From: a bacterium
GTDB lineage: Bacteria > Planctomycetota > UBA11346
Direction of reading: 5' to 3'
Length of the DNA: 60,740 bases
NCBI GenBank assembly: GCA_020047915.1
Contig: JAIFND010000039.1
Coordinates: 1 to 60,740, forward strand
A model generated the notes under the pieces. That model did not search any database and was not told where the DNA came from. It saw nothing but the letters and a program-made list of their open reading frames with translations. Positions 1 through 47,048 of this stretch are shown piece by piece. Position 1 is the first letter of the stretch; each line of letters begins with the position of its first letter. Position numbers and translations under genes: made by a program.

Positions 1-144
1 GGCGGAAGGCGGAAGGCGGAAGGCGGAAGAGTTGCTGAATCGAGTTGATGGGGGCCTGTCGTAGCGCCGACCCATTTTCGACTTCACGACTAGGCCGGCA
101 GTCCAATCCGCATTTCTTCCGCCTTCCGCCTTCCGACTTCCGCC
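1..144. repeat. Inverted tandem-heptamer element E1. (GGCGGAA)x4 arm at 1-29, 86-nt spacer, (TTCCGCC)-type arm at 116-144. The left arm may be cut by the window edge.
   Basis: Read directly: ggcggaaggcggaaggcggaaggcggaag ... cttccgccttccgccttccgacttccgcc. The arms are reverse-complementary with 1 mismatch. Confidence 0.85.
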
Positions 145-602
145 TTTCCAAGGTCAATGCCCTTAACGCAACGCCATTGGGTCCGGATCGCACACGCCGG
201 ATCGGTTGAGGCTTGGTCATGCAACTCGCCCAAACGTGCCGCGATGGCCAGATCGCCGAGTCTCAGCGCCGCGGTGATCCCGGCCCGCAGGGCGCGCACC
301 CGCCCAGAACTCGCCGTCGGCATGGCAGGCTCGTCTGCCATGCACGCACCAGGCCGGGACAGGGACGTATCCGCGGCAGACATACCCGATTCACATGTCG
401 GTTGATCATGCTCATTCACGTTCGCCATGGTGGGCAGCATCATCGCCTTCACGAGTCTCCGCCATGGGGTGAACTCCCCAGTCCCGCATGCAGGGATAAG
501 GGCCATGTCATTGATCAGGACCTGAGACCACCCCCGATCGGTCACCAATACGATGCAGCCGAGGCGCGTCAGGACGGCCGGCGGCTCGCACAAGCCCGCC
601 AT
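90..602 (-). CDS. Hypothetical protein; start uncertain. The 3' end runs into repeat E1.
   Basis: Open frame with strongly G/C-biased third positions in the stretch sampled (421-480). No recognisable motif. The C-terminal residues RRKAEE are a translation of the repeat arm. Confidence 0.3.
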   Translation of the reverse strand: MAGLCEPPAVLTRLGCIVLVTDRGWSQVLINDMALIPACGTGEFTPWRRLVKAMMLPTMANVNEHDQPTCESGMSAADTSLSRPGACMADEPAMPTASSGRVRALRAGITAALRLGDLAIAARLGELHDQASTDPACAIRTQWRCVKGIDLGKAEVGRRKAEEMRIGLPA

Positions 603-3882: not shown

Positions 3883-3969
3883 TGGTGCGCGGGGGGGGAC
3901 TCGAACCCCCACGAATTTTACTTCGCTAGCACCTCAAGCTAGTGCGTCTGCCAATTCCGCCACCCGCGC
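3883..3969 (-). tRNA. tRNA-Leu (anticodon GAG), class II with a long variable arm and encoded CCA.
   Basis: Reverse complement is GCGCGGGTGGCGGAATTGGCAGACGCACTAGCTTGAGGTGCTAGCGAAGTAAAATTCGTGGGGGTTCGAGTCCCCCCCCGCGCACCA. Anticodon stem is CTAGC/GCTAG and the loop is TTGAGGT. Confidence 0.9.
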
Positions 3970-5405: not shown

Positions 5406-6533
5406 CTACATGATCTCCAGTTCGCCGTGCAGCGCCCCGGCCCGGTTGATCGCCTCGAAGATCGACACCAGATCGCGCGGCCGTGCGCCCATCGCGTTCA
5501 GCGCATTGGCGATCTGCTCGACCGTCACGCCTTCGACCATGCCCAGGGTGCCAGGGACGATCGGCGGCTGGATGCCGGCCGGCGGCTGGTCGCCGCGCAG
5601 CTTGGTCACCGGATCGCTCCACTGTACCCCGGTCGGCTGGCCATCGGGCCCGACCGGCTTGGCGGTCGGGGTGATGCGCAGCGACAGGCCGCCATGGCTG
5701 ACCGCGACCGCGCCGATGGCGACGGTCGAGCCGACCACGATCGTGCCGGTGCGGGCGTTGATCACGACGCGCGCGCGGACGTCGGGCGAGACGCGCAGAT
5801 CCTCGATACGGGCCAGGGATTCGACCACTTCTTGCGGTGTCGGCGGGCTGGCGAAGCGCAGCGCGATGGCGCGCGCATCCTCGGCGACGACACGTTCCTG
5901 GCCGAACACCTCGGCCAGCGCCTTGGCGACGCGCGAGGCGGTGGTGAAGTCGGGATCGCGCAGCACCAGGCGCAGGCGGTCCTTCTGCACCAGCGTCGCC
6001 GGCACCTCGCGCTCGACGATCGCTTCGATGACCGCGACAGTCTCGATGTTCTTATGATCGGTGCCTACCGGCCCGGGATTGGCCGGCGAGGCGGCACCGT
6101 AACCGCCGATCGAGACCGGACCCTGGGCGACGGCGTAGATCTTGCCGTCCCACGCATCGAGGGGCGTCTGCAGCAAGATGCCGCCGCGCAAGCTGGTGCA
6201 GTCGCCGATCGCTGACAGTTGGCTGTGCAGCCGGGTGCCGGCCTTGCTGAACGAGGGGATGTCGGCGGTCAGCGCGACCAGCGCCACGTTGCGCGAGTCG
6301 AGATCGCTTTCCGCCAGCGCCTGGTTCTTGCGTGCCAGCACCTGGCGCAGCAGCCGCTTGGTCGCCGGGCTCTTGTCGCCGGTGCCGGACAGGCCGACCA
6401 CGATGCCGATGCCATTGAGCTGGTTGTCGCGCACCCCGTCGATGGTGCACAGATCCTTCAGCCGCACGCCGTGCTGCGCTTCGCCGCCCGCCAGTATGGC
6501 AACGAGAGCCATGGCTAGAGCGATGTACCACAT
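5406..6533 (-). CDS. flgI: Flagellar P-ring protein FlgI.
   Basis: Full-length similarity pattern (GVRDNQLNGIGIVVGLSGTGD, LLQTPL, GPVSIGGY, ELEIM terminus). Signal peptide MWYIALAMALVAILAGG. ATG at 6531-6533. Confidence 0.92.
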   Translation of the reverse strand: MWYIALAMALVAILAGGEAQHGVRLKDLCTIDGVRDNQLNGIGIVVGLSGTGDKSPATKRLLRQVLARKNQALAESDLDSRNVALVALTADIPSFSKAGTRLHSQLSAIGDCTSLRGGILLQTPLDAWDGKIYAVAQGPVSIGGYGAASPANPGPVGTDHKNIETVAVIEAIVEREVPATLVQKDRLRLVLRDPDFTTASRVAKALAEVFGQERVVAEDARAIALRFASPPTPQEVVESLARIEDLRVSPDVRARVVINARTGTIVVGSTVAIGAVAVSHGGLSLRITPTAKPVGPDGQPTGVQWSDPVTKLRGDQPPAGIQPPIVPGTLGMVEGVTVEQIANALNAMGARPRDLVSIFEAINRAGALHGELEIM

Positions 6534-6554
6534 CCGTGATGCTGTCACCGAAAA

Positions 6555-6677
6555 GGCGGAAGGCGGAAGGCGGAAGGCGGAAGATCGGCACGCAGGCGAG
6601 TTGGAATGGGCATCAGGCAGGCACGCGCAGCGCGCAGCAATTCTTCCGCCTTCCGCCTTCCGCCTTCCGCCTTCCGG
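6555..6677. repeat. Inverted tandem-heptamer element E2. (GGCGGAA)x4 at 6555-6583, 59-nt spacer, (CTTCCGC)x5 at 6643-6677. Sits in the flgH-flgI intergenic gap.
   Basis: Read directly; four units pair perfectly. Confidence 0.9.
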
Positions 6678-6700
6678 CATGAAGGTATCCTCAAGACAAG

Positions 6701-7312
6701 CTAGAACGGCCATACGGTGTCCAATATCTTACCCAGCCACCCCTCCTGCTGGGCGCGGGTGAGCGGACCTTCCCCGACGATCGACACCTGCAGGTCGTAG
6801 AGCTTCTCGGACAGCACGGTGTTGTCGCTCTTGATGTCGCTGGGCCGGACGATGCCGGCGATCTGGATGGTCTTGCGATCTTCGTTGATCAGCACTTCGC
6901 GCGATCCGCGGATGACCAGCGAGCCGTTGTCGAGGACATCGACCACCTGCACCGCGATTGACGACCGCACCTTGTGGGTCAGGTCGAACTTGCCCTCGCC
7001 CTGGAACTGCTTGGACGAGTCCACATCCAATCCGGGCAGCTTGCCGAGTGCGGTCTCGCCCACGGCGGCCGGCAACTGGTTCGTTCCGGGCAGCAGGTTG
7101 ACGCCGATGTTGGCCTTGTTGTCCCGTTTGTTGTCGGTCTTCTCGTTCTCCGAGACCGAGGTCGTCTCCTGGATGACCACGGTCAGCAGATCACCACGCC
7201 GGCGCGCGGTGGCGTCGGCGTAGAGATTGCCGTCGGCAAGGGTCTCGGCCTGCCACAGGCTCTCGGCGGCCAACGAGGCGGCGAGGCACAGGAGGATCAG
7301 CAATGGTCGCAT
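6701..7312 (-). CDS. flgH: Flagellar L-ring protein FlgH.
   Basis: RGDLLTVVIQETTSVSE, LVIRGSREVLINEDRKTIQIAGIVRPSDI, LGKILDTVWPF. Signal peptide MRPLLILLCLAASLAA. ATG at 7310-7312. Confidence 0.9.
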   Translation of the reverse strand: MRPLLILLCLAASLAAESLWQAETLADGNLYADATARRRGDLLTVVIQETTSVSENEKTDNKRDNKANIGVNLLPGTNQLPAAVGETALGKLPGLDVDSSKQFQGEGKFDLTHKVRSSIAVQVVDVLDNGSLVIRGSREVLINEDRKTIQIAGIVRPSDIKSDNTVLSEKLYDLQVSIVGEGPLTRAQQEGWLGKILDTVWPF

Positions 7313-15138: not shown

Positions 15139-15259
15139 GGAGCGCGGGCGCCCCCGCCCGACCGGACCGCGGGCGCCCTCGCCCGCGGCGCATGAGGCAG
15201 GGTCAACTGCTGCGGGCGGGGGCGCCCGCAGGCCGGTCGGGCGGGGGCGCCCGCGCTCC
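15139..15259. repeat. GC-rich nested inverted repeat. A perfect 27-bp outer arm pair (15139-15165 / 15233-15259) encloses a second imperfect copy of the same unit (15168-15187 / 15211-15230), with a 22-nt loop.
   Basis: ggagcgcgggcgcccccgcccgaccgg ... ccggtcgggcgggggcgcccgcgctcc. The unit GCGGGCGCCCCCGCCCG is repeated twice per arm. Confidence 0.85.
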
Positions 15260-19550: not shown

Positions 19551-20486
19551 CTAATTGCTGCCGGCGAGGACCCCGTACACGGTGTCGGGCATGGCCTTGG
19601 CCAACGCGGCCATGCCGTCGCGGCCAGCGGCCTGTTCCTTGGGTTTGCTTGAACCGGTCAGGCGCTTGCACTCCATATAGACCGAACGCGCTTTCAGCTC
19701 CTTCTTGATGACCGGGTCCTTGCCGAGTTCCGACAGGCGGCTCTTCAAGGCCTTGAGATCAAGACCGTCGAAGCGGCGGGACAGCCCCTCCAGCTTCTCG
19801 TAGGCCGCGAAACCTTCGCCTGCGGCAGCCAGGCCAGCCTCCAGCGCAGTGGTCGCCGAGGTGATCACCAGTTGGGACTGCTCGCCGACCGCGTTCTTGC
19901 GCTTGGCGGCACCGACCAATTCCTTGAGCGCCCCGGGCACCAGCCCGCGGTTGGCCTTCCACCACACTTCGATGACCCCGGCCTCGGTCAGGCCCTCGAC
20001 CGGGATGGCATGGGTGCCACCGGTCAGTCCCTTGAGGAAGGGCAGGGGCTTGCCCTTGCCGTAGGTTTCAGCCGTGCTGACGGTCTGCAGCGTGCCGTCA
20101 GGCTTCAGCAGTTCCGTCCACATCGTGGTCTTCTTGCCGACCCCGTTGGGATTGTTCGGGTCGTAGGCGCCGAGCGTGCGCTCGATGCCCTTCGACTTCA
20201 GCAGATCGGCCATCGCCTGCGGCTCGAAGTGCGGCGAGGTGACGATCACCCACACCGGCACCTTCTCCTTCTCAATCCAGTCCACCGCTTCTTTGACGCC
20301 CTCACCGAGGGACGCGACGCAGTGGGGTCAATGACCCGAGAATTGGTAGAGGAGGACGTGCTGTCCGGCGAAATCGGCGCTCGTACGCGAGACGCCGTCG
20401 CTGAACTGGAGCCTGGCGATCGGGTCGGCGGCGGCTAAGAAGCCGGCGACGACCAGCGCGAGACAGAGTCGGGCGAATATGGCCAT
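19551..20486 (-). CDS. Secreted thioredoxin-fold (TlpA/redoxin-like) selenoprotein with an in-frame TGA (Sec) at 20328-20330 in a U-P-H-C redox motif. Merges track ORFs 20328..20852 (C-terminal part) and 19551..20285.
   Basis: Reads MAIFARLCLALVVAGFLAAA...GQHVLLYQFSGH-TGA-PHCVASLGEGVKEAVDWIEKEK... in one frame. WCxxC-type context, SECIS-like hairpin 15-34 nt after the TGA, and selD/selA adjacent. Confidence 0.7.
20296..20315 (-). promoter_or_regulatory. Candidate bacterial SECIS stem-loop for the TGA at 20328-20330.
   Basis: mRNA is UGA-N12-GCG[U]CCCUC-GGU-GAGGGCGU: an 8-bp stem with a bulged U on the 5' side and G/U in the apical loop, at a spacing close to the E. coli fdhF SECIS. Confidence 0.5.
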
Positions 20487-20640
20487 ATATCGATTATGGA
20501 CAGCACGCCGACCAAGACAAGAAACAACCCGCCTCGTATCGCACGCCCGTGCGGGTAGCGCCAGACGGGGATTTGAGCCGCATGCCGATCGACTAGGGTC
20601 CGCCATGCCCGCCATCAATCTGCCCCGCCGCCGTGAAGTC

Positions 20641-22356
20641 ATGAAGCGCTCGATCGCGCTCGGCCACTGCATCTGCGATCCGCGCCTGGGCTGCCCCTGT
20701 CCGACCCTGAAGAACGAGGACCGCTGCCCCTGCGCCGGCGAAACCGCGCCGGAACCACCCGCCGATGCCGTGATCCGGCTGACCCAGAGCGTCAAGGCGG
20801 CGGGCTGCGGCGCCAAGATCGGCAAGGCGCAACTCGCGAGCCTGCTCGGCAACCTGCCGGTGATCGATGATCCGCGCGTCCTGATCGGGTCGGCGGCCGG
20901 CGACGATGCCGCCGTGCTGCGCCTGGACGGGTCGCGCGATGACCTGGTGCAGACCGTCGATGTGCTCTCGCCGCCGGTCGATGATCCCTACAGCTACGGC
21001 CGCATCGCCGCCGCCAACGCCCTGTCCGACATCTGGGCGATGGGCGGCCGCGCGGAATGCTCCCTGTCGGTGGTCGGTTGGCCGATGCACGACCTACCGC
21101 CCAGCGCGCTGGCCGAGGTGCTGCGCGGCGGGGCCGAGGCGATGCGCGAGGCCGGCGTGCCGGTGGTCGGCGGGCAAAGCGTCAACGCCGCCGAACCCTT
21201 CGCCGGCTACAGCGTCACCGGCACCGTGGCCGCCGGGCGCGCGATCCGCAATCAGGGCGCGCAACCGGGCGATGTGCTGGTGCTGAGCAAGGCGCTGGGC
21301 GGCGGGTTCCTGGGGTTCGCGCAGCAGATCGGCCTACTCGCGCCCGAGCACCTCGCCGCCTGGACGGCGCAGATGGCGGCCTTCAACCGCGCCGCCGGCG
21401 AGGCCATGGCGCGGCATGGCGCGCATGCCGGCACCGATGTGACCGGCTTCGCCCTGCTCGGCCATGCGATCGAGATCGCCATGCGCTCGCCGTGCGATCT
21501 GGTCATCGATTTCGATCGCCTGCCGATCCATCCCGGCGTCCAGGACCTGGCCCGCCGCGAGGTGTGGCCGGGAGCCCTGGAGCGCAACCGCGAGGCAGTC
21601 GCGCCCGAGCGCCTTGACCTCGCCGGTCTGAGCCCCGCCCAGATCGCCGTCCTGTTCTGCCCCGAGACCTCGGGCGGCATCCTCGCCTTCCTGCCCGCCG
21701 ATGCGGTGTTTGGCTACCGTGCCGACTGCGCCACCGCCGGGGTGGCGACCAGCGTGATCGGCGAGGTCGTGGCCGGCACCGGGCGCATCCGCGTCACCAC
21801 CAGCGATGCCGCCGCGTGGTCGCCGCTGGGCATCCCGAAATCTAAGGCTCCGGCGCCGACCGCCGCCAAGCTGGCGGCCATGGAAAAAGCTGGAGGCTGG
21901 AAGCTGGAGGCTGGAAGCGTGGCCATCCAGGACCTCGCTACCATCGCAGATCCTGCACATCGCCTCGCCACTGCGATCGCCGCCGCTCCTCCAGCCTCCA
22001 GCCCCCAGCCTCCAGCCCTCCTCCCCGAGACACCGTGCTGCGCCGAACCGCCCGCCACGGCCAACGCCATGGCCCCGCTGCCTACCGTCAGCGGCCTGCC
22101 GCCCGCCGCCGCTGCAGCGGCCTTCACCGCCTACATGCAGGCGGTGACCGCGCCGGGCGCCCTCGACGCGCGGACCAAGAAGCTGATCGCGCTGGCCCTG
22201 TCGGTGGCCGGGCGCTGCGAACCGTGCGTCGGCATCAACGCCGAGGGCGCGCAGAAGGCCGGCGCCGACCAGGCGCAGATCGCCGAAGCAGTGGCCCTGG
22301 GCATCGCCTTCGGTGGCGCCCCGACCGCGATGTTCTACAACGGCCTGCGGAAATAA
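20641..22356 (+). CDS. selD: Selenophosphate synthetase SelD (Cys form) with a Cys-rich N-terminal extension, fused through a repeat-derived linker to a C-terminal AhpD/carboxymuconolactone-decarboxylase-like CxxC domain. Alternative start at 20605.
   Basis: IRLTQSVKAAGCGAKIG, DDAAV, FGRIAAANALSDIWAMGG-type motifs. No stop until 22354-22356. C-terminus ALSVAGRCEPCVGINAEGAQKAG is an AhpD-like core. Confidence 0.85.
   Translation: MKRSIALGHCICDPRLGCPCPTLKNEDRCPCAGETAPEPPADAVIRLTQSVKAAGCGAKIGKAQLASLLGNLPVIDDPRVLIGSAAGDDAAVLRLDGSRDDLVQTVDVLSPPVDDPYSYGRIAAANALSDIWAMGGRAECSLSVVGWPMHDLPPSALAEVLRGGAEAMREAGVPVVGGQSVNAAEPFAGYSVTGTVAAGRAIRNQGAQPGDVLVLSKALGGGFLGFAQQIGLLAPEHLAAWTAQMAAFNRAAGEAMARHGAHAGTDVTGFALLGHAIEIAMRSPCDLVIDFDRLPIHPGVQDLARREVWPGALERNREAVAPERLDLAGLSPAQIAVLFCPETSGGILAFLPADAVFGYRADCATAGVATSVIGEVVAGTGRIRVTTSDAAAWSPLGIPKSKAPAPTAAKLAAMEKAGGWKLEAGSVAIQDLATIADPAHRLATAIAAAPPASSPQPPALLPETPCCAEPPATANAMAPLPTVSGLPPAAAAAAFTAYMQAVTAPGALDARTKKLIALALSVAGRCEPCVGINAEGAQKAGADQAQIAEAVALGIAFGGAPTAMFYNGLRK
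21889..22024. repeat. Inverted tandem-heptamer element F1. (GCTGGAR)x4 at 21889-21918, 66-nt spacer, (CYCCAGC)-type arm at 21985-22024. Lies inside the selD ORF.
   Basis: gctggaggctggaagctggaggctggaagc ... gctcctccagcctccagcccccagcctccagccctcctcc. Translated in frame as AGGWKLEAGS ... APPASSPQPPALLP. Confidence 0.85.
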
Positions 22357-23737: not shown

Positions 23738-23829
23738 GCTGGAAGCTGGAAGCTGGAAGCTGGAAGCTGGAAGCATGATCCATCCACGGCTTCTCGTTCC
23801 TGTCGCCCCTCCAGCCTCCAGCCTCCAGC
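23738..23829. repeat. Inverted tandem-heptamer element F2. (GCTGGAA)x5 at 23738-23774, 33-nt spacer, (CCTCCAG)x3 at 23808-23829. Fills the convergent selA/pmbA gap.
   Basis: Read directly. Each unit carries an A-versus-G difference, so the pairing is uninterrupted (G-U) only in a minus-strand transcript. Confidence 0.88.
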
Positions 23830-23834
23830 GTCCC

Positions 23835-26611: not shown

Positions 26612-29600
26612 TCAGCGCGCGGCGGTGACCGGCAGGGTGCCGCCGAGCAGGGCTGGGACGGCATCATCCGGAGTGAGCGGCAGGTCGTGGCGATGCAGCA
26701 CGACGTCGGTGGCGCCGTCGGCCCAGCGCAGGCGCAGGCGGTTCTCGCCAGCCTTCAGCAGCCAGGCAGGCAGTTCGGCGCTGGCCGATGCAGGGAAGCG
26801 CACCACATCGCGCTGCCCGTCGGCATTCTCGACGATGACATAGGTGAGACCGACCGATTCGATGTGCGCCGTGCGACCGACCTCGGCCACCAGGCGGGCG
26901 CCAGGCGTGCGTGCCGGCATGGCGATCTCACCCTGCCAGGCGAGGGGCCGGTCGTCGGCGGCGATGGCAGGATTGGAGGCCAGGCGCAGGCTGTAGGTGA
27001 CGCCGGGACGGAAGTCGCCGACCAGGCGCACGCGGCCATCACTGATGCTGGTCTGCAACGGCACGCTGGGCGTGATCGCGATCTCGCCCAGCAGAGCAGC
27101 GGGATTCAACGGCACGCGGTTGAGTTGCAGTTCGATGATGCCAGGGCCGAAGGCGGGCAGACTGGCACTGGGCGCCGAGACCGCCACTGCCGGCAGCGTG
27201 CGCACGGTGAAGCTCGGCACGCGCTCGCGCGCGAAGCGGAAGCCGCCCAGGGCGCGCAACTCGTCGCTGAACGCCAGGCTGACGGTGGCGTCGGCAGGCA
27301 GTTCGCCAGCCGGCGTGAACACGCAGGTGCGGGCATCCTGCCAGGCGCAGGTGCCGGCCCCGGCCGGCGTGACGACGGGCAACGGCGCGGCTGTCCGCGT
27401 CGCCTCGTCGAGCGGCAGATTGAGCGTCCACGCCACGCTCTGGCTGCGCGACACGATCGCTCCATCGCTCGGACCGCTGGCTGCCAGCACATCCCTCGGC
27501 TGATCCATCCACGCCACGAGCACGCCGACGGCCAGCACCAGGAGTGCGAGCATCGCTGCGGTCGGAAGGTGGCGGGGGCGGGACATCGTGGCGGGCTTGG
27601 GCGGGGGTGAGGTCGGGGCGGGGGTGGGTGCGGTGTTGGCGGTCTCGGGCCGGATCGGCGGCGGATCCGGGTCAGGATCCGGTGGTGGCGATGGTGGCAC
27701 TTCCGCGACAGGTGCGGGCTCGGCGATCACCGGTGCGACCGGCTCGGGTTCCGGCGGCGGCACGACCGCCTGGACGGTCTCCACCACGGCTGACACGACG
27801 AGCTGTGGAGCTGGCGCCACGGTTTCCGGGACGACCAGCCTAGCGACCGGCTCGGGGGCCGGCTCCGGAGCACACACGACGGCGACTGGTTCCGGCTCTG
27901 GGGCGGGGGCAGGAGGAACCACGACCGGAGCAACGGTGAGGGGTTCCGGCTCGGGAACAGAAGCCATCGCTACCGGTTCCGGTTCCGGTTCCGGTTCCGG
28001 TTCCGGCGCAACGGCTACTGGTTCCGGTTCCGGCGCAACGGCGACTGGTTCCGGTTCCGGCGCGGGTTCGGGCTCGGGCACAACGGCGACTGGTTCCGGT
28101 TCTGGCGTAGCGACGACCGGCTCCGGTGCCGCCGCGATCGCGACCGGTTGGGCTTCGGGATCGCTTGGCGCAGCCCGGGCAACCGGGGCTTCCTCGGCCT
28201 GCGGCACAGGCTCGGGTGGTGCTTCCGGCGCTGCGATCGGTACGACCAGCGGCGCACCGGCCTCGGGCAGCGGCAGCACGATGGGTGCCCCCGGCAACGG
28301 GTCCGGGATCACGACGCCCAGCGGCACGACCTCGAAGCTGGGCGGGGTCGGCCCGTCGGCGGTCGGCTGCGGACCCTGCGGCGTCATCTGCGGAGCGCCG
28401 GCGGCGGGATCGGGGATCGGCGGCGGAGCCTCGATGGCGGGTTTGACAACCTCGGCCACCGGCCGGGGACGCGGCGGGGCTCGCTTCGGCTTGGGCGGCT
28501 CGTCGGGCTTGGCGACCACCTCCACCACCACAGGTGGCGGGGGTGGTGGTGGCGGGGCAGGCTTGACCACGCCCGGTGGCAACGGCTCGCCGGGATGCGT
28601 CTCCTCCCACCAGGCGATGAAGCCGAGTTCGAGATCGGAAGCGCGGCCGAGCAGGCGCTCGACCCCGATCTCGCTTTCGAGGTCGCGCAGGAAGCGCTGC
28701 TCCTCGTTCTCGACCGCCGGCTCGGCCTCGTCGCCGGTCTTCTCGTCCTCGATCTCGGCGGCGCTGCCGCCGCGCGGTTGCCAGGTGACCAGGGGCGGCC
28801 GGCGCTGGCGCTTGGGCAGCTGCTCGGCCGGGCCGGGGTCGCCACCCGCGATGGCGCGCTCGTCCTCGGGCCGGAAGCGCAGGTGGACGTCGCCGTACTG
28901 CTCTTCCTGGCGCACCGTCAGCATGCGCTGACGCGTGCCTTCGAGGATCGCCATGACGATGCCGACCCGGGCGATCAGGCCGTCATCCAGGGCGAAGAGC
29001 TCGGACATGCGACCTTCGCCACGGCTGCGCATCGATTCGACGACCTGGGCGATGCGCACGCCCATCGGCACATCATCGACGATGACGGTGCGCGGGCCGA
29101 GACTGTCGATGCGCTTGAGCAGATCGAACCACAGGTTGGCCAGCGTCCCGGCCCCGACGTCCTTCAGCTCCCAGGCATCGACCTCGGCCGGATCGTCGGG
29201 CACCACCTCGCGATGACCTCGTTCGTGACGCAGGCGGCGCTCGTCGTCGCGGCGGTCGAGATCGAAGGCCGCCTCCTTGGCGGCGCGATAGACCAGCAGC
29301 TTGCGGATCAGGCCGGCGCGCGGGTCGAACTCGTCCTCGCCGTCGTCCTCGACCTCGGTGCCCTCGGGCGGCGGGGCGACCTGGCGCGCCTTGATCTCCA
29401 GCAGGGTCGCGGCCATGACCACGAAGTCGCCGGCGGCTTCGAGGTCGAGGGTGGTGCCGGCCGCCGCCGCGACCCAGGTCGCGAACTGGTCGGCGATGGT
29501 GGTGATCGGCAGATCTTTGATGTCCACCTCGGTGCGGCGCACCAGGTAGAGCAGCAGATCCATCGGGCCGCTGAACTGGTCGAGGGCGACGGTGATTCCG

Positions 29601-30989: not shown

Positions 30990-31222
30990 GCTGGCATGTT
31001 CAGCGTCCATCGCCCCGGACCAAGCTGGCGGATTGCCCGTTCCATCCCGTGTGTGAAAGACGACGGGGATGGTGATGGTTGCGTATCCGTTCCAACCACT
31101 ATCGTCCGCCCCCGCACAGCTGGACCCCGGGAGCAGGAAGCCTCCGAATCTGGTCAGGCCTTGACGGGAGCAGCCATAAGGTGGCGGCCAGCGTCCCGGG
31201 TCATCTGGCTGTGCATTTCTCC

Positions 31223-33062: not shown

Positions 33063-33394
33063 CCAGCGCGCCAGCGCTGGCGGCCGCCAGGGGCGCGGGC
33101 GGCATACAATCGGCGCAGCCGATGCCGCCCTGGTTTCCGAGCGCAGCGAGGAAACCAAGCCCCGCCCGTGGCCGAGGGGCAGGCCCCCGGTCGTCCGGGG
33201 GCCGTGGGGACGCAGTCCCCAAGCAGAAAAACCAGCGCGCCAGCGCTGGCGGCCGCCAGGGGCGCGGGGCGGATACAATGGGCGCTAGCCCATCCGCCCC
33301 TGGTTTCCGAGCGCAGCGAGGAAACCAAGCCCCGCCCGCGGCCGAGGGGCAGGCCCCCGGTCGTCCGGGGGCCGTGGGGACGCAGTCCCCAAGC
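33063..33394. repeat. Two tandem copies (33063-33224 and 33232-33394) of a ~162-nt multi-hairpin unit in the convergent panD / outer-membrane-protein gap.
   Basis: The units are near-identical except in one hairpin (33097-33130 versus 33266-33300), where both stems change in a compensatory way. Other hairpins are tggtttcc-N12-ggaaacca, ggcccccgg-tcgt-ccgggggcc and tgggga-cgcag-tcccca. Confidence 0.85.
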
Positions 33395-34288: not shown

Positions 34289-35259
34289 GCGTCGTCTTCC
34301 TTGGGGGAGCGGGAAAGGAGCTGATGCACGGCCTGGGCGACCGGGACGGACTCCCAGATGACGGAGGCCACCTGGGATGCGATCGGAAGTTCGACGGCCA
34401 CACGCCGCCCGAGCTCGACCGCCGCTCGGCAGGTCCATGCACCTTCGGCCACGGTGCTTGATTGGGATAGAAAGTCCATGGGGTTTTGCCCGCGCGCCAG
34501 CGCCAGCCCCAGGGCACGGTTGCGACCGTGCGGGGCATAGCAGGTGGTCATCAGATCGCCGACCCCGGCCACTCCGGCGAAGGTCGCATCCTGGGCGCCC
34601 AGGGCCCGGCCCAGGCGGCGCATCTCGGCCAGGCCGCGGGCGACCAGGGCGGCGCGCGCGTTGTCGCCCAAGCCCAGCCCCTCGCACATGCCGCTCGCCA
34701 CCGCGATGACGTTCTTGAGTGCCCCGCACAGTTCCACTCCCAGCAAGTCGCTGGAGGTGTAGATGCGCAGGCGCTGGCCGTGCAGCACCTCGACCAGGCG
34801 TCGGCAGGCGGCGGCGTCGCCGGCGGCGACCAGGCAGGCAGGCAGGCCACGCAGCACTTCGATGGCATGGCTGGGCCCAGAGAGGACTGCGACCGGCCGG
34901 CCGGGCAGCTCGGCGGTCAGGATTTCACTGACCCGGGCCAGCGAGCCCTGCTCGAGGCCCTTGGCCAGGGATACCACCGGCACGGTCGAGATCGCGGCCG
35001 ACAGTTCGCGCGCCTGGGCGCGGGTATGCTGGGTCGGCACGCCCCACAGGATGAGGTCGGCGCTACGCAGGCGCTTGGGATCGGAGACGATCTCAACGGC
35101 GGCAGGCAGCGGCAGGCCGGGCAGCTGGGGATGCTGGCGGTCGGCGGCGATGCGCGCCGTCTTGGCCGGATCACGGCCCCACAGCAGGACCGGCTCGCGA
35201 GCGGCGATCAGACAGGCGGTGGCCGTGCCCCAGGATCCGGTGCCGACGACGGCAATCAC
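34285..35259 (-). CDS. gpsA: NAD(P)H-dependent glycerol-3-phosphate dehydrogenase GpsA.
   Basis: IAVVGTGSWGTA, GPSHAIEV, LKNVIAVASGM, GDLMTTC. Confidence 0.9.
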   Translation of the reverse strand: MIAVVGTGSWGTATACLIAAREPVLLWGRDPAKTARIAADRQHPQLPGLPLPAAVEIVSDPKRLRSADLILWGVPTQHTRAQARELSAAISTVPVVSLAKGLEQGSLARVSEILTAELPGRPVAVLSGPSHAIEVLRGLPACLVAAGDAAACRRLVEVLHGQRLRIYTSSDLLGVELCGALKNVIAVASGMCEGLGLGDNARAALVARGLAEMRRLGRALGAQDATFAGVAGVGDLMTTCYAPHGRNRALGLALARGQNPMDFLSQSSTVAEGAWTCRAAVELGRRVAVELPIASQVASVIWESVPVAQAVHQLLSRSPKEDDA

Positions 35260-35425
35260 CCGAAAAGCCGCATTTCACAAGGAGGAACAAAGGCAACAGA
35301 GCTCGCAACGACACATTGCGAGCGATAGGACAGATACGATTCGCGGGAGTGATCGGCTGTGTTCCACGTCATGTCGCCTCCGTTACCTTCGTTCCTCCGT
35401 GTGAATCCGGATGCGATCTCCAGGA

Positions 35426-35842
35426 TCACAGGTCTGGCAGAGCCTTCGGATCGGTGGGATCAGGCGCCGCCGGTTCGGGGACGGTGCCACCGTCAGGATC
35501 GGTACGCCGGGCGCGGCTGATGATCTCGTCCATACGGTCGCGCTTCTGCTCGCGGTCATCGAACAGCAGGCGCAGGTCGGGAACCAGGCGGGTGCGCACC
35601 GCCGGGGCGAAGCTGCGCCGCAGATGCGGACGGGCGCTTTCCAGGGCGTGCTCGGCCAGCTTGCGCTCGCGCATGCCGCCCAGCACCGTCCAGTAGGCGG
35701 TGACCAACTGCAGATCGCCGGTCAGTTCGACCCGGGTGATCGTCACCAGGCCCATGCGCGGGTCGTCGAGCCCGCGCACCGCGGTGGCGATCTCGCGGTG
35801 CAGGAGCGAGGCGAGGCGCTGCTGACGGGTCGGAGCGGACAT
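35426..35842 (-). CDS. rbfA: Ribosome-binding factor A.
   Basis: RLASLLHREIATAV...DPRMGLVTITRVELTGDLQLVTAYWTV. Lies downstream of infB. Confidence 0.88.
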   Translation of the reverse strand: MSAPTRQQRLASLLHREIATAVRGLDDPRMGLVTITRVELTGDLQLVTAYWTVLGGMRERKLAEHALESARPHLRRSFAPAVRTRLVPDLRLLFDDREQKRDRMDEIISRARRTDPDGGTVPEPAAPDPTDPKALPDL

Positions 35843-35845
35843 GGG

Positions 35846-35983
35846 GTAGCTTAGAGCTTAGAGCTTTGAGCTTTGGGCTTTGAGCCCGAAGCGGTGCGTG
35901 ATTATTGGATTGCTGTGCAGCATAGGAAAAGTTCAGCGCAAAGTGAATGGTCTGCGGACTCTAAGCTCTAAGCTCTAAGCTTA
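35846..35983. repeat. Inverted tandem-heptamer element G1. (TAGAGCT/TTGAGCT)-type arm at 35846-35885, 72-nt AT-richer spacer, (CTAAGCT)x3 arm at 35958-35983 that overlaps the infB stop codon.
   Basis: gtagcttagagcttagagctttgagctttgggctttgagc ... actctaagctctaagctctaagctta. Confidence 0.88.
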
Positions 35984-38900
35984 GGAGGCGGCAGCCTTCC
36001 TCGGCACCTTTTCCTTGAGGTAGAACTCCATCAGGTCGCCTTCCTTGATGTCCTGGAAGTTCTCGACCGTCAGGCCGCACTCGAAGCCCTCGCGGACCTC
36101 CTTGACGTCCTCCTTGAAGCGCCGCAGCGAGCCGACCTTGCCGGCATGGAGGATGTTCGAGTCGCGGGTGATGCGCATGAAGGCGTCGCGGCGCACCAGG
36201 CCGTCGACCACGCGCAGACCGGCGACCATGCCCGTCTTGCTGATCTGGAAGGTCGTCTTCACCTCGGCGTGACCGATGATGTTCTCGCGCGTCTCGGGTT
36301 CGAGCATGCCGGCCGCGGCCAGCTTCAGCTCGTCGAGCAGCTCGTAGATGATGGTGTAGCTGCGGATGTCGACGCCGTTGTCGTCGGCGATCATGCGCGC
36401 CTTCGAGTCGGCGACGACGTGGAAGCCGATGACCGTGGCCTTGGACGCGACCGCCAGGGTCACGTCGCTGCTGTTGATGCCGCCGACGCCGCTGTGGATG
36501 ATCGCGACGCGGACATCCTGGCTGGTCAGGTCGTTGATCGTCTTCTGCAGCACTTCCAGCGAGCCGCTGGCGTCGGCCTTCACCACCACGCGCAGCTCCT
36601 TCTTCTTCGATTCGGCGATGTCGCCGAGGATCGAGCTGCTGGTGATGTTCTTGGCCTTGGCCATCAGTTCGCGGTCGCGGTTCTTCTGCCGGCGGACTTC
36701 GGCTGCCTCGGCAGCCTGGGCGAGGTCCTCCATCACCCGGAAGCTGTCGCCGGCGCGCGGCATCTCGTCGAGGCCGATGATCTCGGCAGCGGTCGAGGGT
36801 CCGGCGATCTCGGCGCGCTCGCCCTTCCAGTTGGTCAGGCTGCGCACGCGGCCATAGGCCGCACCGGCCAGCACGACATCACCGATCGCCAGCGTGCCAC
36901 GCTGCACCAGGAAGGTGGCGGTGACGCCCTGGCCTTCGCTGCGGTTGGCTTCGAGCACGGTGCCGGAGGCGGGGGCGAAGTGGTTCGCCTTCAGTTCCTT
37001 GACGTCGGTCTCGAGCGCGAGACGCGAGAGCAGGTCCTCGATGCCGACGCCGGTGATCGCGCTGGTGCGCACGACGCCGATCTCGCCGCCCCATTCCTCG
37101 GCCTGCAGACCCTGCTCGGCGAGCTGGCGGATGACGCGCTCCTGCGCCTGCGGGGTGGCCTCGGGCTTGTCGCACTTGTTCATCGCCACGACCACCGCGA
37201 CGCCGGCGGCCTTGGCGTGGTTGATCGCCTCGATGGTCTGCGGCATGCAGCCGTCCACCGCATCGACGACGATGACCGCGATGTCGGTCACCTTTGAACC
37301 ACGCGCGCGCATCTCGGTGAAGGCCTGGTGGCCGGGGGTGTCGATGAACGTCACCTCCATGCCGTTGGGCGCGGTCACGGTGTAGGCGCCGATATGCTGG
37401 GTGATGCCGCCGGCCTCGCCGGCCGCGATCTCGGTCTTGCGGATCGCATCGAGCAGGCTGGTCTTGCCGTGGTCAACGTGGCCCATGATGGTCACGATCG
37501 GCGGACGCGGGGTCAGGTCCTCGGGCTTGTCGGCGGTGATGACCTGGGTCTCGGCCTCGATCTCCTCGTCGAGATCCTTCGGCTCGGTGATGGTCACCGT
37601 CTTCTTGAATTCCTGGGCCAGCAGCTCGACCTCGGACTTGCCGAGCACCGAGTTGATGTTGGCCATCACGCCGGCCATGAACAGCTTGGCGATGATCACG
37701 CTGACCTTGACGCCGCCGGCCTCGGAGAACTCGCGCACCGTGCACGGCACGGCGATCGAGAACTCGGTGACGCCGCTGATGTCCTCGTCGAGCGACGAGC
37801 GCAGGCGGCGACGGGTGAGGTTGCCTTCCTGCTCGTTGGGATCGTCCTTGCCGGGCACCGCACCACGCGCGCCGCCGCGAGCCGGACCGCGGTTGGGACC
37901 ACCGGGGCCGCGGTTGGGGCCGCCCGGGCCGCGTCCAGGACCGCCGGGTCCGCGACCGGGACCGCCGGGTCCGCGGCTGAGGCCGCCTGGGCCGCCGGGC
38001 GTCTTGGTGCGGTCGATGGTGCGGAAGCCAGGACGCTTCGCCGCGGCCTTGGCCTCGGCGACCTTCTTGGCCATCTCCATGTTGCGCTGGATGTTGGCCT
38101 GGATGAGGCGGCGGCGTTCTTCGGGCGACAGCGGCTGGTCGGGCAGCACCGGGGTGCCGGCGGCGGGCGCGACGGGCGCGGGCGGCTTGGGTATCGCCTT
38201 GATCGTGTGGTCGGCCTTCTCGTGGGTCTGCTTGGCCATCGCGGCCAGCTTCGAGCCGACGCCGGCGACGGTCTTCAGGACCGGGGCGGCAGGCTTGGCG
38301 ACGACCGGCTTGGGGGCCAGGGCGGGGGCCCGCGCCGGCTCGGGGGTCGGGGCCAGTTCGGGCTGCGACTCGGCGATCGTGGTGAGGGTGGCGGGCGTCT
38401 GGGCCGGCGTGGCGGGCACGACGGCGGGCGTCTCGGCGACCGGGGTGACGGCCGGGGCGGCGGCAGGCGTGGCGGGCTGGGCTGCGGCGGCGGCTGCCGC
38501 AGCGGCATCGGCGCGCGCGGTGGCCTGGTTCTGCTTCATCGTGGCAAGCTGTTCGGCGATACGCTGGGCTTCGCTCTCGCGGCGGCGCAGCTCGTCCTCG
38601 GCGACGATGCGCTGGCGTTCCAGGTCCTGGCGGACGCGCTCGTCCTCTTCCAGGCGCTTGCGCTCGGAGGCCTCGTCGGCCACGCGCTTGGCGTCGTCCT
38701 CGGCCTGGCGGCGGGCCAGCTCCTCGGCGTGCTTCTTGCGCTCCTCGATGAGCTTGCGCTCCTCGTCGGCCTTGGCCTTGGCGGCCTCCTCCTCGGCCTT
38801 CTTCTTGCGCGTCTCCATGCCCTTCTTGGCCTGGAGCTTCTTCTGGTGCTTCTCTTCGAACTCCTTGGCGATGATCGGAGTGAAGGGCTTGCCGTCGGCG

Positions 38901-39058
38901 GTCTCGAGGCCGTCGCAGGCCAGGATGCGGGCGACCTCTGCTTCCTTCAGCACCGACTCGGCGCCTTTGGTAAGTTTGATCTTGAGATCGACCTCGACGA
39001 CCTCGACCAGGAGGTCGAGGGAGAGGTTATGGGCCTTGGCCAACTCGGCGAGCTTCAT
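35981..39058 (-). CDS. infB: Translation initiation factor IF-2.
   Basis: [22 protein letters not shown]-domain. Charged and Gly/Pro-rich N-terminal region. 1025 aa. Confidence 0.95.
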
Positions 39059-39125
39059 GCAGTTTCCGTAGGGGCGAACACGATGGCGCGGTTCCGGCCG
39101 CGCTCAAGCGGCGGTCTGCGCCGTG

Positions 39126-40433
39126 TCAGGAGGCCGCCGAGGACGAGGTCGGGGCCGGCTGGGCGGCGGCGGTGGCGGCGGCGGCGATGGCGCGCGCCTC
39201 TTCTTCCTGGGCACGGCGCTCGGCCTCGGCGCGCTGTTCAAGCAGCTTCTGCTTGTCGGCGCGCTGCTCGGGGGTGAGCAGCTCTTCGGCCTTGGCGATC
39301 AGCTTGGTGGCCAGCTCGAGATCGACCGGGGCGCCCTGCAGGCCCTCGACCAGGCGCTCGGGCACCTGGGCGGCAAGCACCGAGAGGGCGTCGAGGTGGT
39401 TGTCGAGGAAGGTCTCGCGCAGGAAGTCGTCGAGCAGCTTGGCGTCGATGAGCAGCTGGAGCTCTTCCGAGCCCTTCTGGCGCTTCTCGGTCTGCGCCTC
39501 TTCGCTCATCACGTCGATCTTGTAGCGGGTCAGGCGGGCCGACAGGCGGACGTTCTGGCCGGCCTTGCCGATCGCCAGGGGCAGCTGGTCCTGCGACACC
39601 ACGACGCGGGCGCGGTCGCGGAAGTGGTCGTAGCTGATGCGCAGGATGCGGGCGGGCTTGAGCGAGTTCTCGATGTACTGCGCCGAGTCCTCGGCCCACG
39701 GGATGATGTCGATCTTCTCGCCGCCGAGTTCATCGGTGACCTTGCTGATGCGGCTGCCGCGCATGCCGACGCACGAACCGACCGGGTCGATGCGCGGATC
39801 AGTGCTGGCGACCGCGATCTTGGTGCGGCGGCCGGGCTCGCGCACGATGCCCTTCACCTCGATCAGGCCGTCGGCGATCTCGGGGATCTCGGCACGGAAC
39901 AACTCGCGCACGAAGTTGGCGTGGGTACGCGAGAGGACGATGCGCAGGCGGCTGCCCTTCTTCTCGCACTTCAGCACGTAGGCGCGCACCACCGCACCGG
40001 GGCGGTACACCTCGCCGGGCAACTGCTCCTCTTTCGGCATGATCGCCTCGGCGCGGCCGCCCAGGGCGATGATCGCCATGCCGTGCTCTTCACGCATGAC
40101 CGTGCCTGAGACGACGGTGTGCAGACGGGGTGAGAAGTCGTCGTAGAGGCGGTCTCGCTCGGTCTCGCGCAGGCCCTGCACGAAGACCTGCTTGGCGACG
40201 TTGGCGACGATACGGCCGAGCGTCTCGAGATCGACCGGCTTGTCGTCCTCGAAGGCGCGGATCTCGCCGCTCTCGCGGTCGATCGTCACGGTGAAGTCGC
40301 CGGTCGCGTCGAAACGCTTCTGGGCGGCCTGCTGCATCGCGCGCTCGATGTGGTCGATGATCACGGATTTGTCGACGCCGCGCTCCTTGGCGAGGGCTTC
40401 GACGCGCTGCAGGAAATTGGCGGCGTTGAACAT
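39126..40433 (-). CDS. nusA: Transcription termination/antitermination factor NusA.
   Basis: N-terminal domain, S1, two KH domains (GACVGMRGSRI-type motif) and an acidic C-terminal repeat. Upstream of infB. Confidence 0.95.
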   Translation of the reverse strand: MFNAANFLQRVEALAKERGVDKSVIIDHIERAMQQAAQKRFDATGDFTVTIDRESGEIRAFEDDKPVDLETLGRIVANVAKQVFVQGLRETERDRLYDDFSPRLHTVVSGTVMREEHGMAIIALGGRAEAIMPKEEQLPGEVYRPGAVVRAYVLKCEKKGSRLRIVLSRTHANFVRELFRAEIPEIADGLIEVKGIVREPGRRTKIAVASTDPRIDPVGSCVGMRGSRISKVTDELGGEKIDIIPWAEDSAQYIENSLKPARILRISYDHFRDRARVVVSQDQLPLAIGKAGQNVRLSARLTRYKIDVMSEEAQTEKRQKGSEELQLLIDAKLLDDFLRETFLDNHLDALSVLAAQVPERLVEGLQGAPVDLELATKLIAKAEELLTPEQRADKQKLLEQRAEAERRAQEEEARAIAAAATAAAQPAPTSSSAAS

Positions 40434-40565
40434 CTGGATCGTCCTAGACGAAAAAAGCGTGAGCCGGAGGGCCCACGCTTCCGGTTTCCCGAAAGGTTGA
40501 GACGGCAGGAGGGTATCGTCTTTCGCGGGTGGTCAATGTGGATCCGGCGGGGCAGGGGGAGGGGA

Positions 40566-40712
40566 GGCGGAAGGCGGAAGGCGGAAGGCGGAAGAGTCGC
40601 TTGATGCGTGCGATCGGCATCAGTCCGGTTCACGGGCCAATGCTGCGCCCGGCGGATGGCGACGATCGCGCAACTTGGCAATTCTTCCGCCTTCCGCCTT
40701 CCTCCTTCCGCC
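40566..40712. repeat. Inverted tandem-heptamer element E3. (GGCGGAA)x4 at 40566-40594, 89-nt spacer, (TTCCKCC)x4 at 40684-40712. Lies between the RACo-like gene and nusA.
   Basis: Read directly. One unit carries a G-to-T change (cttcctcc). Confidence 0.9.
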
Positions 40713-40728
40713 TTTCGACCTGGGTGTG

Positions 40729-42216: not shown

Positions 42217-42242
42217 CAGCGATCCTCACCCGATGCAGGCAA

Positions 42243-42408
42243 GGCGGAAGGCGGAAGGCGGAAGGCGGAAGAGTTGCCAAGCCGGGACGATGGACGCTGT
42301 CCGCCTGGATCAGCCCACCGCCCGTTCGGACCCAGGGCGCACGCTAAAGCTGTATCCCCGAGCGCGCAGATCCGCATTTCTTCCGCCTTCCTCCTTCCGC
42401 CTTCCGCC
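42243..42408. repeat. Inverted tandem-heptamer element E4. (GGCGGAA)x4 at 42243-42271, 108-nt spacer, (TTCCKCC)x4 at 42380-42408. Lies between the DUF1638 gene and the RACo-like gene.
   Basis: Read directly. Shares the junction motifs gagttgc and atccgcatttcttcc with E1. Confidence 0.9.
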
Positions 42409-42427
42409 TTCGTCGGCCTGCCCGCCC

Positions 42428-43186
42428 TCACGCTTCCGCCCCGATCAGGCTGCCATCGTAACGCGGCACGATGCGGCTTCCGGGCGGCACGACCAGGAAG
42501 CGCTGCTCGTCCCACGGCCCGTTGACCAGGGCCTCGATCCAGGCGGTGTCGCCGGGCATCACCTCCAGGCGCCAGCCCTGGCTGGCGGCGCGACGGGCGG
42601 CCTCGGCGCGCACCCCCTCCTGCGGACCAACCCCGGTATCGATGTAGGCCAGACGCTCGTAGTGACGGCATTGCGCCTGCATCTCGTCCCACAGGTAGCG
42701 GGCGTTGTCCTCGCCGTACTTCTCCAGCATGCGCCGCCAGGCCGGGTCATCGGCCGGCGGATCCTTGGGCGTGTTGGCCAGCCAGTCGCTGGCGTCGCCG
42801 CGAAAGCGCTCGATCCAGCCGATCGACAGCCAGTAGGTGCCAGGGGCCTTGGCGTGCTCGTCGGTGAAGCGCTTGGCCGAGCCGAGCAGGCAGGCGATGC
42901 AGTCGTGGCTACGCAGGGCGACCAGCGGAGCGTGGCGCGCCTGCAGGCCGAGGATGCCGTTGTTGCACAGGGCGTAGCCGAGGATCACCGCGTCGTAGCC
43001 TTCGGCCGGTACGGCATCGATCGCAGCCTGGATCTCGCGCGCCATCGGCTTGCCGCCCTGGCTGTGCAGGTTGGCGGGCAGGAAGCGGATATCCACGAGG
43101 TTGGGCGAGCGCGCCGCTGCGGCGGCCAGTTCACGCGTGAACACGCCGCAGCCGATCGCAGCGTAGCGCTTGGCCACGATGGTCAT
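42428..43186 (-). CDS. DUF1638 domain protein (typical neighbour of corrinoid methyltransferase systems).
   Basis: Family-like N-terminus (AAIGCGVFTREL) and conserved context with a B12-binding protein. Starts 3 nt after the upstream stop. Confidence 0.65.
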   Translation of the reverse strand: MTIVAKRYAAIGCGVFTRELAAAAARSPNLVDIRFLPANLHSQGGKPMAREIQAAIDAVPAEGYDAVILGYALCNNGILGLQARHAPLVALRSHDCIACLLGSAKRFTDEHAKAPGTYWLSIGWIERFRGDASDWLANTPKDPPADDPAWRRMLEKYGEDNARYLWDEMQAQCRHYERLAYIDTGVGPQEGVRAEAARRAASQGWRLEVMPGDTAWIEALVNGPWDEQRFLVVPPGSRIVPRYDGSLIGAEA

Positions 43187-43188
43187 CG

Positions 43189-43827: not shown

Positions 43828-43907
43828 GGTCGGGCTCCTGGCGGAAGGCGTGGTTGCTGGCTGCGATGATAGGTCGGCACACGGACAGACACCTATCTTT
43901 TACGATC

Positions 43908-46449: not shown

Positions 46450-46457
46450 ATCCGTGG

Positions 46458-46552: not shown

Positions 46553-46556
46553 TTTC

Positions 46557-46844: not shown

Positions 46845-47048
46845 GCCGGGACGGTCGGAGGTTGACCAGGAGGCGCAAGGGCGCGTCCGGACTTCCAGAC
46901 AGCGGACTCCGCCCATCAGCCCCTCCACGGGTGACACACACACGCTCACCGTACGAACCGCGCCCCTTGGTCCCCGGCAGCGGCCCCGCTAGGGTGGCGC
47001 TACATCCCGGTATGCACCGGGCCGCATCCACCAGCGGGGAAACGCGTT

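Follow-up and report, generated by a model that had tools for sequence, protein, structure and literature searches.

Paired heptamer arrays of the window and their family

The 60,740-nt stretch of Planctomycetota DNA analysed here (lineage UBA11346; assembly GCA_020047915.1, contig JAIFND010000039.1; hereafter the window) carries four hairpin-forming elements, E1 to E4, each of which consists of a tandem array of the heptamer GGCGGAA, a core and the complementary array (Table 1). Matches to (GGCGGAA)3 with up to two mismatches number 17, overlapping one another at four places, and 100 shuffles gave an expectation of 0. The genes around E2, E3 and E4 are all on the minus strand (Pfam), and E2 and E4 sit between co-oriented genes. 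As a preliminary description of this DNA had stated, E2 separates flgH (7372 to 6704) from flgI (6512 to 5409), and E4 lies between a DUF1638 gene (stop codon at 42428-42430) and a RACo-like gene (start at 42216). E3 starts 13 nt past the RACo stop codon, with nusA and a terminator-like hairpin at 40450-40485 beyond it. That hairpin (minus strand; GCGTGGGCC-CTCC-GGCTCACGC, then TTTTTT) lies downstream of E3 and about 20 nt upstream of the nusA start, and it may mark the end of the RACo transcript or belong to the nusA leader. The window itself begins inside E1, at a contig break that truncates the left arm.

Table 1. Coordinates and make-up of the elements and other features of the window.
Feature	Position	Strand	Description
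E1	1-147		(GGCGGAA)4, GAGTTGC, 88-nt core, GCATTTC, (TTCCGCC)4 with one TTCCGAC unit
Right outer arm of the E1-carrying IS4-like element	148-179		ends ...CCTTAACGCAACGCCATTG; then 10-bp target duplication GGTCCGGATC at 180-189
tRNA gene	3886-3969	-	Rfam
Extra block at the flgH-flgI junction	6514-6705		186 nt, direct repeat GCTAGA at 6514-6519 and 6700-6705; E2 is the central 125 nt
E2	6553-6677		left arm 6553-6584, core 6585-6641, right arm 6642-6677
B1	21887-22017		arms (GCTGGAR)4 / (YTCCAGC)4; fold -44 kcal/mol, z = -8.1
B2	23738-23833		(GCTGGAA)5 ... (CCTCCAG)3; fills the gap from the selA stop (23734) to the stop of the convergent gene (23835)
Small SRP RNA gene	31117-31214	+	Rfam
C1	35848-35981		(AGCTTWG)5 ... 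(CTCTAAG)3; in the gap from the infB stop (35981-35983) to the rbfA start (35842)
E3	40565-40715		(GGCGGAA)4, GAGTCGC, 91-nt core, GCAATTC, (TTCCGCC)4 with one TTCCTCC unit
E4	42241-42411		(GGCGGAA)4, GAGTTGC, 110-nt core, GCATTTC, (TTCCGCC)4 with one TTCCTCC unit
B3	46457-46554		(GGCTGGA)4 ... (GCCTCCA/GCTTCCA)5; fills the gap from the upstream ORF stop (46557) to the sppA start (46449)

All four elements open with the same 30 nt, (GGCGGAA)4GA (GGCGGAAGGCGGAAGGCGGAAGGCGGAAGA), and close with the complementary array, in which one unit is variant in E1, E3 and E4. The inverted arms are fully complementary over 32 nt in E2 (6553-6584/6642-6673), and at 86% of positions in E1 (1-43/102-144), 92% in E3 (40565-40600/40678-40713) and 92% in E4 (42241-42277/42374-42410). 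The resulting stems of 28-35 bp are far more stable than those of shuffled sequences, with DNA folding energies between -52 and -58 kcal/mol (E1 -52.4, E2 -54.2 and E3 -58.0; z = -8 to -10). The spacers between the arrays measure 61, 88, 91 and 110 nt; the discrepancy with the 59, 86, 89 and 108 nt given earlier comes solely from the choice of arm boundary.

At the flgH-flgI junction, relatives allow the element to be compared with its absence. The closest genomes by FlgI are metagenome-assembled genomes (MAGs) of Planctomycetota with 65-88% identity, and the window sequence itself occurs in microbial-mat metagenomes; an exact look-up of FlgI found no record. An alphaproteobacterial source, which GC content and the flagellar genes had seemed to suggest, was rejected in view of these nearest genomes. 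In three relatives flgH and flgI are separated by only 1-2 nt (TAG-CC-ATG in L081 and L084, TGA-C-ATG in L083), and E2 is therefore gained DNA. In two further relatives the gap holds a different cluster, of about 200 nt, of small GC-rich hairpins. No comparable empty sites were obtained for E3, E4 or C1, a further heptamer hairpin of the window, and for RACo a scan of species genomes returned only relatives of at most 57% identity.

Scanning metagenomes for the arm together with its inner box (GGCGGAAGGCGGAAGARWYGC) gave 83 loci, 56 of them from JFJP01, an assembly of a mat metagenome. With the window, these loci hold 57 paired elements, mostly from JFJP01, and the proposed kinship of E1-E4 holds: they are members of one family. 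Its unit reads 5'-(AAGGCGG)~4-AA-GRRWYGC, a core of 40-113 nt, then GCRWYYC-TT-(CCGCCTT)~4-3', so that each element starts with AAGGCGG, ends with CCGCCTT and has inverted ends of about 35 nt made of four tandem heptamers and one degenerate inner heptamer. The inner 7 nt fit GRRWYGC, most commonly as GAGTTGC (alpha) or GAAATGC (beta). The junction likenesses pointed out earlier were all recovered, in that E1 and E4 agree in GAGTTGC at their left junction and in ATCCGCATTTC at their right one, E2 and E3 share GCAATTC on the right, and the right junction of E3 is 95% complementary to the left junction of E4 over 41 nt. The inner box is lineage-specific: arm and inner box GAGTYGC together matched only twice in 185,579 species genomes. 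The arm alone, (GGCGGAA)4GA, has at least 80 occurrences, spread over very diverse phyla, with an inverted partner in about one fifth of them; 65 of 83 (GGCGGAA)n arrays in other phyla have no partner, and the loci with (GGCGGAA)4GA in these phyla are also rich in other heptamer arrays. The Bacteroidota/Rhodothermia isolate Rubrivirga litoralis has arrays of (GGCGGAA)5-9 at nine loci (L014, L035, L040, L041, L045, L049, L050, L059 and L076); since these are one-sided and followed by a common GATGCCCACCCCGCCC motif, they represent a different repeat family with the same heptamer.

The spacers had seemed unrelated by eye, which does not hold in the larger sample. Clustering of the cores gave subfamilies of 14 members (including E1) and 5 members as well as four pairs, all in unrelated flanks, and E2, E3 and E4 each have a relative with 58-70% core identity. 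The E1 subfamily has an 88-nt core, present in forward orientation in 8 copies and reversed in 6, with several internal-deletion variants. The E3 core matches that of L132 at 67 of 96 positions, with equal core length, the E4 core matches L143 at 78 of 121, and the E2 core contains a GCGCGC-containing module also found in L116, L138 and L140; identical copies of the E2, E3 and E4 cores were not present in the sample. Within every core-sharing pair the likeness ends exactly at the outer edge of the array, beyond which the flanks are unrelated. Since the inner box and the multi-copy cores are conserved between unlinked loci, the whole unit, arms and core together, is copied. The suggestion that elements can sit in either orientation stands for the inner ends, which occur both ways, as in the E1 subfamily, but not for the arms, which have a single polarity: in all 54 pairs of neighbouring arms the G-rich one leads, and the reverse order was never seen.

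The two arms of an element behave independently. Four units on each side is the mode (24 of the 54 pairs) within a range of 3-12 units, with no correlation between the numbers on the left and right (Spearman 0.15, p = 0.29). Subfamilies pass on their variant units, which find no compensation in the opposite arm, and the mismatches they cause are not of the wobble type (G-A in E1, C-T in E3 and E4). The preliminary description had tied the proposal of a family to co-variation of left and right arms; its absence is evidence against matched-arm maintenance, not against a family. Polymorphism of heptamer copy number, which was also to be checked according to that description, was not seen across the available assemblies, where unit numbers vary only between paralogous copies. 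C1 is identical in eight independent assemblies, E2 in one other (the independent JGI contig L086), and E3 and E4 in one other (the ENA contig L261). The rbfA locus next to C1 is also carried, in the same form, by the MAG GCA_003482625.1. The number of units drifts in each arm on its own, and deletions occur in the cores. In their behaviour the arrays are repeats that slip slowly and not contingency loci.

Nested copies, copies inside genes and other heptamers

[quoted passage not shown] IS4-family elements are recognised by IS4-like termini and a TSD of 9-13 bp. The TIR agrees with the end of E. coli IS4 (TAATGCCGATCAGTTAAGG) at 14 of 19 positions, and the IS4 TSD in K-12 is 12 bp; judging from these ends, the outer element of E1 appears to be an IS4-family MITE, a likeness that applies only to this outer element. 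The missing left half of E1 was found at the end of another contig (L111, 13435-13537) together with the same 10-bp flank, GGTCCGGATC, from which it follows that the window contig and JFJP01020346.1 adjoin at E1, and therefore that the assembly broke in the heptamer array. The second subfamily is nested in a different MITE with the same terminal CAATGGCGT. Ends of this type-2 MITE were located at L110, L111, L119, L120, L128, L145 and L157; its targets are small GGGC-N3-4-GCCC hairpins, and its duplications include GGGCTTCGCC, GGGCGAAGCC and GGGCAGAGCC. Heptamer elements are nested in two MITEs with clean 10-bp TSDs; the hairpin has therefore inserted into no fewer than two different MITEs and multiplied along with them. 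E1 is among the copies that landed in IS4-like MITEs and were then multiplied by them. Two loci with one outer arm apparent, L108 and L112, were considered as independent core insertions and rejected, as they are deletion derivatives of IS4-like MITEs that keep the duplications.

In other organisms, heptamer hairpins also occur inside genes. A Singulisphaera MAG has a (GGCGGAA)4 hairpin in frame inside hemW (L051, 2990-3085), and a Chthoniobacter MAG (L007, about 880-960) has a (GGCGGAA)n hairpin in frame in an open reading frame (ORF) with the KMSKS motif of class I aminoacyl-tRNA synthetases, which we read, from its sequence, as ValRS-like. Apart from a 93-nt indel by which the hairpin is lost, a hemW allele from another sample (L260) is identical to that of L051 at 1143 of 1143 nt. 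A 6-nt direct repeat, GCCTTC, lies at the bounds of the indel, and CCTTCCGCCTT, which corresponds to 1.5 units, is left in the short allele. In a third hemW orthologue (P0123) another insert occupies this loop.

Within the window, Tandem Repeats Finder and direct reading detected four further hairpins of the same design with other heptamers, B1-B3 and C1. The eight window elements are all intergenic, between annotated domains or genes, and the extra hairpins occupy almost the whole stop-to-start gap of infB-rbfA and upstream of sppA, as well as the gap between selA and its convergent neighbour. The selD frame (AIRS domains; 20350-22353, plus strand) has no stop before B1 and runs open through it into a CMD-family (AhpD-like) domain, just upstream of selA, and B1 may have fused or extended the selD and CMD ORFs. 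A likeness to a Shine-Dalgarno sequence was noted for the G-rich arm unit of E1-E4 and B1-B3, AAGGCGG (variant AAGGAGG), and one to the 16S rRNA 3' end for their C-rich unit, CCGCCTT (variant CCTCCTT).

The period of these arrays is strongly restricted. In the window, 14 arrays have period 7, compared with 0-2 for each of the periods 5, 6, 8 and 9 (none for period 8), and a sample of about 548 kb, made up of the window, 82 metagenome loci and L086, contains 205 arrays of period 7 and 5 of period 8. Among the other heptamers in related loci are CGGCGTT, ACGTTCG and AGAGCTT, which have no G tracts and build the same architecture.

Mode of spread and rival explanations

The data presented here show that the family is an inserted and copied unit with sharp ends, constrained inverted ends and no target duplication. 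As to what kind of unit this is, we lean, with moderate confidence, towards placing E1-E4 in a foldback repeat family, dispersed and non-coding, that would be selfish DNA of the kind represented by dimers of repetitive extragenic palindromic (REP) sequences, known as REPINs, and by MITEs. The elements would be spread by a putative enzyme whose substrate is the hairpin or its ends; a single-strand transposase of HUH/RAYT-like or TIRYT-like type, encoded elsewhere in the genome, is the most plausible candidate. The surviving copies would be those that had landed in the short non-coding gaps between genes or, keeping the frame, in protein loops that tolerate them. On operon mRNAs the 28-35-bp duplexes would uncouple the translation of neighbouring genes that depends on stop/start coupling, and they could be cut by RNase III or block exonucleases, which would be a side effect and not the reason for their existence.

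Several observations weigh against this proposal. TSDs abutting the arms do not exceed controls, since the best flank match of 42 stand-alone copies is 1-4 nt, the same as with mismatched flanks, and no flank or target consensus was found. Searches with E. coli RayT (tblastn) and IS4 InsG returned nothing significant in the 548-kb sample, in which no arm pair encloses more than 300 nt or a gene either. The gained block at E2 is larger than the hairpin itself, no filled/empty pair was found within this species, and the hemW pair, the one filled/empty pair at nucleotide level and from a different organism, reads better as a palindrome-stimulated deletion with a footprint than as an insertion. 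Counts are biased, as the loci were picked by the repeat pattern itself. The arms are about 100% identical where cores are 58-70% identical, and such near-identical arms beside diverged cores could reflect selection by the host on the stem. Finally, about 12 different heptamers build the same architecture in one genome and the same heptamer recurs across many phyla, for which one sequence-specific transposase is insufficient; it is mainly for this reason, that neither heptamer diversity nor cross-phylum recurrence fits one sequence-specific enzyme, that our confidence is not higher. It should be added that palindromes extending into the flanks, the mark of insertion into pre-existing hairpins, showed no excess, and that direct repeats of at least 9 nt further out occur only for copies nested in IS4-like MITEs. 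The two longest weak matches of the transposase search turned out to be a UbiE methyltransferase and a GH39 glycosidase.

The hairpins might instead be host-selected RNA punctuation, with the duplexes serving in polycistronic mRNA as targets of RNase III, as 3' stabilisers or as attenuators, and so setting the relative expression of neighbouring genes. We consider this unlikely, if far from negligible. REPs lend stability to upstream mRNA in E. coli, and RNase III cleaves Correia elements and, generally, long RNA duplexes, so that the earlier suggestion of a double-strand RNase substrate would be reasonable for the hairpins in operons. The stems are very stable, they fill stop-to-start gaps in operons (flgH-flgI, DUF1638-RACo, infB-rbfA and upstream of sppA), the arms are conserved far above the cores, and nothing changed across eight independent assemblies. 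However, relatives do without the element at flgH-flgI, and the elements show little regard for transcription. Gene contexts from crude calls (n = 41) are co-directional in 31 cases, divergent in 8 and convergent in 2, without enrichment between convergent genes, and they match ordinary gene-pair frequencies. The asymmetric inner ends are oriented without bias relative to the mRNA (the alpha or beta end lies 5' in the ratio 6:3), and nothing points to a function specific to the transcript sense. The non-wobble mismatches in the arms, the copies within MITEs and coding regions and the absence of an Rfam match at the hairpins (Rfam 15, gathering threshold; the window matches are one tRNA and the SRP RNA) also speak against such a role. 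Intrinsic termination was considered and rejected: a consensus scan of 35000-47000 called no terminator at its five elements, and no consistent T-run follows the stems, the only one on the mRNA strand being that of E2 (TTTTC). As for transcript data, the RNA runs located contain just 5-18% of infB words and hence derive from distant relatives.

The striking period-7 excess invites an explanation by growth in place, in which polymerase slippage, already put forward for the known excess of heptanucleotide repeats, would build the heptamer arrays as simple sequence repeats (SSRs) and intrastrand template switching would add the inverted partner, with no mobility involved. The many heptamers, the unit numbers of 3-12 that are independent between arms and the 65 of 83 unpaired arrays in other phyla all fit, and both an excess of heptamer SSRs and inverted pairs of them in Xanthomonas have been published (PMC4692102). 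Yet slippage leaves unexplained the inner box and cores shared between unrelated flanks, the 4+4 mode and the 54:0 polarity, the 61-nt core where relatives have a 2-nt gap, and the in-frame blocks in conserved genes; this explanation is already disfavoured and we regard it as improbable. Another possible origin is a chromosome break at which both 3' ends receive a G-rich array, or a captured fragment to which C-rich arrays are added. The synthesis would be the work of a polymerase or reverse transcriptase that copies a template in a 7-nt register, with the core as filler, as in head-to-head telomere fusions. Symmetric addition to 3' ends predicts the invariant G-rich-first order, and heterogeneous cores without TSDs, as well as one architecture with many heptamers in many phyla, also fit. 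The conserved inner box and multi-copy cores argue instead for copying of whole units, the fixed mode of four units is unlike processive addition, and no templated heptamer-adding enzyme was seen in the sampled loci; to our knowledge no such enzyme is known in these bacteria. We therefore find an origin by end addition very improbable. Least probable among the alternatives weighed here is that the arrays are binding sites for a heptamer-reading protein, or form a two-tetrad G-quadruplex or i-motif, and thereby regulate neighbouring genes, an idea already put forward for the GGGAATC repeats of Xanthomonas. It is true that (GGCGGAA)n has GG tracts every 3-4 nt, that many copies end 3-25 nt from a start codon, and that G-quadruplex-forming heptamer repeats near ORFs have precedent (PMC4692102). 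The CGGCGTT, ACGTTCG and AGAGCTT families do the same without G tracts, however, and a complementary arm close by favours a duplex or hairpin over a quadruplex.

A bolder form of the foldback reading would take in the other phyla: heptamer-armed foldback hairpins would be a self-propagating class, present in several phyla and without target duplication, moved or made by an enzyme working in a 7-nt register, and much of the bacterial heptanucleotide excess would have been born as arms and as excision footprints of 1-2 units, not by plain slippage. We put this forward as a doubtful proposal. If true, the excess thereby explained would include the cyanobacterial STRR, the Xanthomonas GGGAATC repeats and the arrays in Planctomycetota, Verrucomicrobiota, Chloroflexota and Bacteroidota.

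Known repeats, and other features of the window

REP dimers, or REPINs, are REP doublets that form hairpins and are mobilised by RAYT tyrosine transposases (Y1 HUH). The family described here resembles them in being short, abundant and intergenic, with two conserved inverted ends of 25-35 nt around a spacer, and in its sharp ends, the lack of a target duplication, the insertion into other small palindromes and the occasional in-frame copy in a gene. In REP dimers the spacer is 20-100 bp long and may or may not be conserved, insertion is into small palindromes, and copies occur inside genes (PMC3733652). Unlike REPs, the arms here are tandem heptamers without self-complementarity, so that pairing is only between the two arms, and the ends are AAGGCGG...CCGCCTT, with no GTAG or CGTC tag.

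The MITEs of DDE transposons offer a second comparison. The family has their terminal inverted repeats and lacks a TSD of fixed length abutting them. Correia/NEMIS elements of Neisseria, ERIC, RUP and BOX are co-transcribed intergenic MITEs of about 100-200 bp with long RNA hairpins, a TSD (TA for Correia) and a conserved interior. The size of about 100-200 bp, the terminal inverted repeats (about 35 nt here) and the position between genes are similar; the absent TSD, the diverse interiors and the tandem-repeat structure of the TIRs are different. In architecture an analogy may be drawn to the FB transposons of Drosophila and relatives, kilobase-scale eukaryotic elements with 9-bp TSDs and long inverted ends of short tandem repeats. 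Tandem-repeat inverted ends, arms that are unequal between and within copies and a variable loop are found in both, with no homology implied. In-frame palindromic repeats inside conserved protein genes are known from the RPE of Rickettsia and the intragenic REPs of Opitutus, to which the copies in hemW and in the ValRS-like ORF of other phyla, and B1 in the open selD-CMD frame, may be compared; the sequences differ, and RPEs are not built of tandem heptamers.

A published counterpart is the GGGAATC repeat of Xanthomonas, which forms 70-75 convergent heptamer pairs per genome, with the G-rich strand first, in intergenic positions close to ORFs (Rehm et al., 2015; PMC4692102). Unit numbers of these repeats vary between species at conserved positions, and they were described as SSRs or G-quadruplex candidates; an excess of heptanucleotide SSRs is known from many bacteria, including the cyanobacterial STRR (PMC4692102). 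Tandem 7-nt units, the excess of period 7, the intergenic location and the invariably convergent, G-rich-first order (54:0) are common to both systems. Unlike such SSRs, the elements here show no variation of unit number between assemblies, and they have an inner box, core families, nesting and insertion evidence, none of which is reported in the Xanthomonas description. Our literature search gave no match for the sequence itself and no paper in which bacterial inverted repeats that end in tandem heptamers are treated as mobile units. In kind, the elements are ordinary dispersed palindromic repeats; their form is unusual and has been little described.

Heptanucleotide repeats are the most over-represented long SSRs in many bacteria, and the Xanthomonas inverted pairs were published without a mechanism (PMC4692102). 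Recognising heptamer arrays as the ends of a copied and inserted unit turns a descriptive oddity into a testable problem of mobile-element biology, namely which enzyme is responsible and why the unit is seven. Since the duplexes sit between translationally coupled genes (flgH-flgI, infB-rbfA) and, in other phyla, in essential genes, the expression of operons and the loops of proteins are likely to be affected. There are practical consequences as well: heptamer hairpins break metagenome assemblies, as seen from the start of the window inside E1, and they mislead gene callers, with open frames running through E2, B1 and B3.

Some other repeats of the window are of different kinds. At 33063-33394 a group of small, GC-rich hairpins is duplicated in tandem (170 bp, 95% identical); because hairpins of these types also occupy the gap between flgH and flgI in two relatives, the group represents a separate REP-like family. 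At 15139-15259 the boundary of two plus-strand ORFs coincides with a long GC-rich palindrome, whose 51-nt arms are 92% complementary and enclose a loop of 19 nt. Degenerate 27-nt (9-codon) tandem repeats rich in GGTTCC, at 27861-28159 within a minus-strand ORF of 1021 aa, probably encode a repetitive low-complexity segment of the protein. Lastly, three adjacent plus-strand ORFs of 750-850 aa at 51811-59149 have repeated segments in common and are probably tandem paralogous genes.

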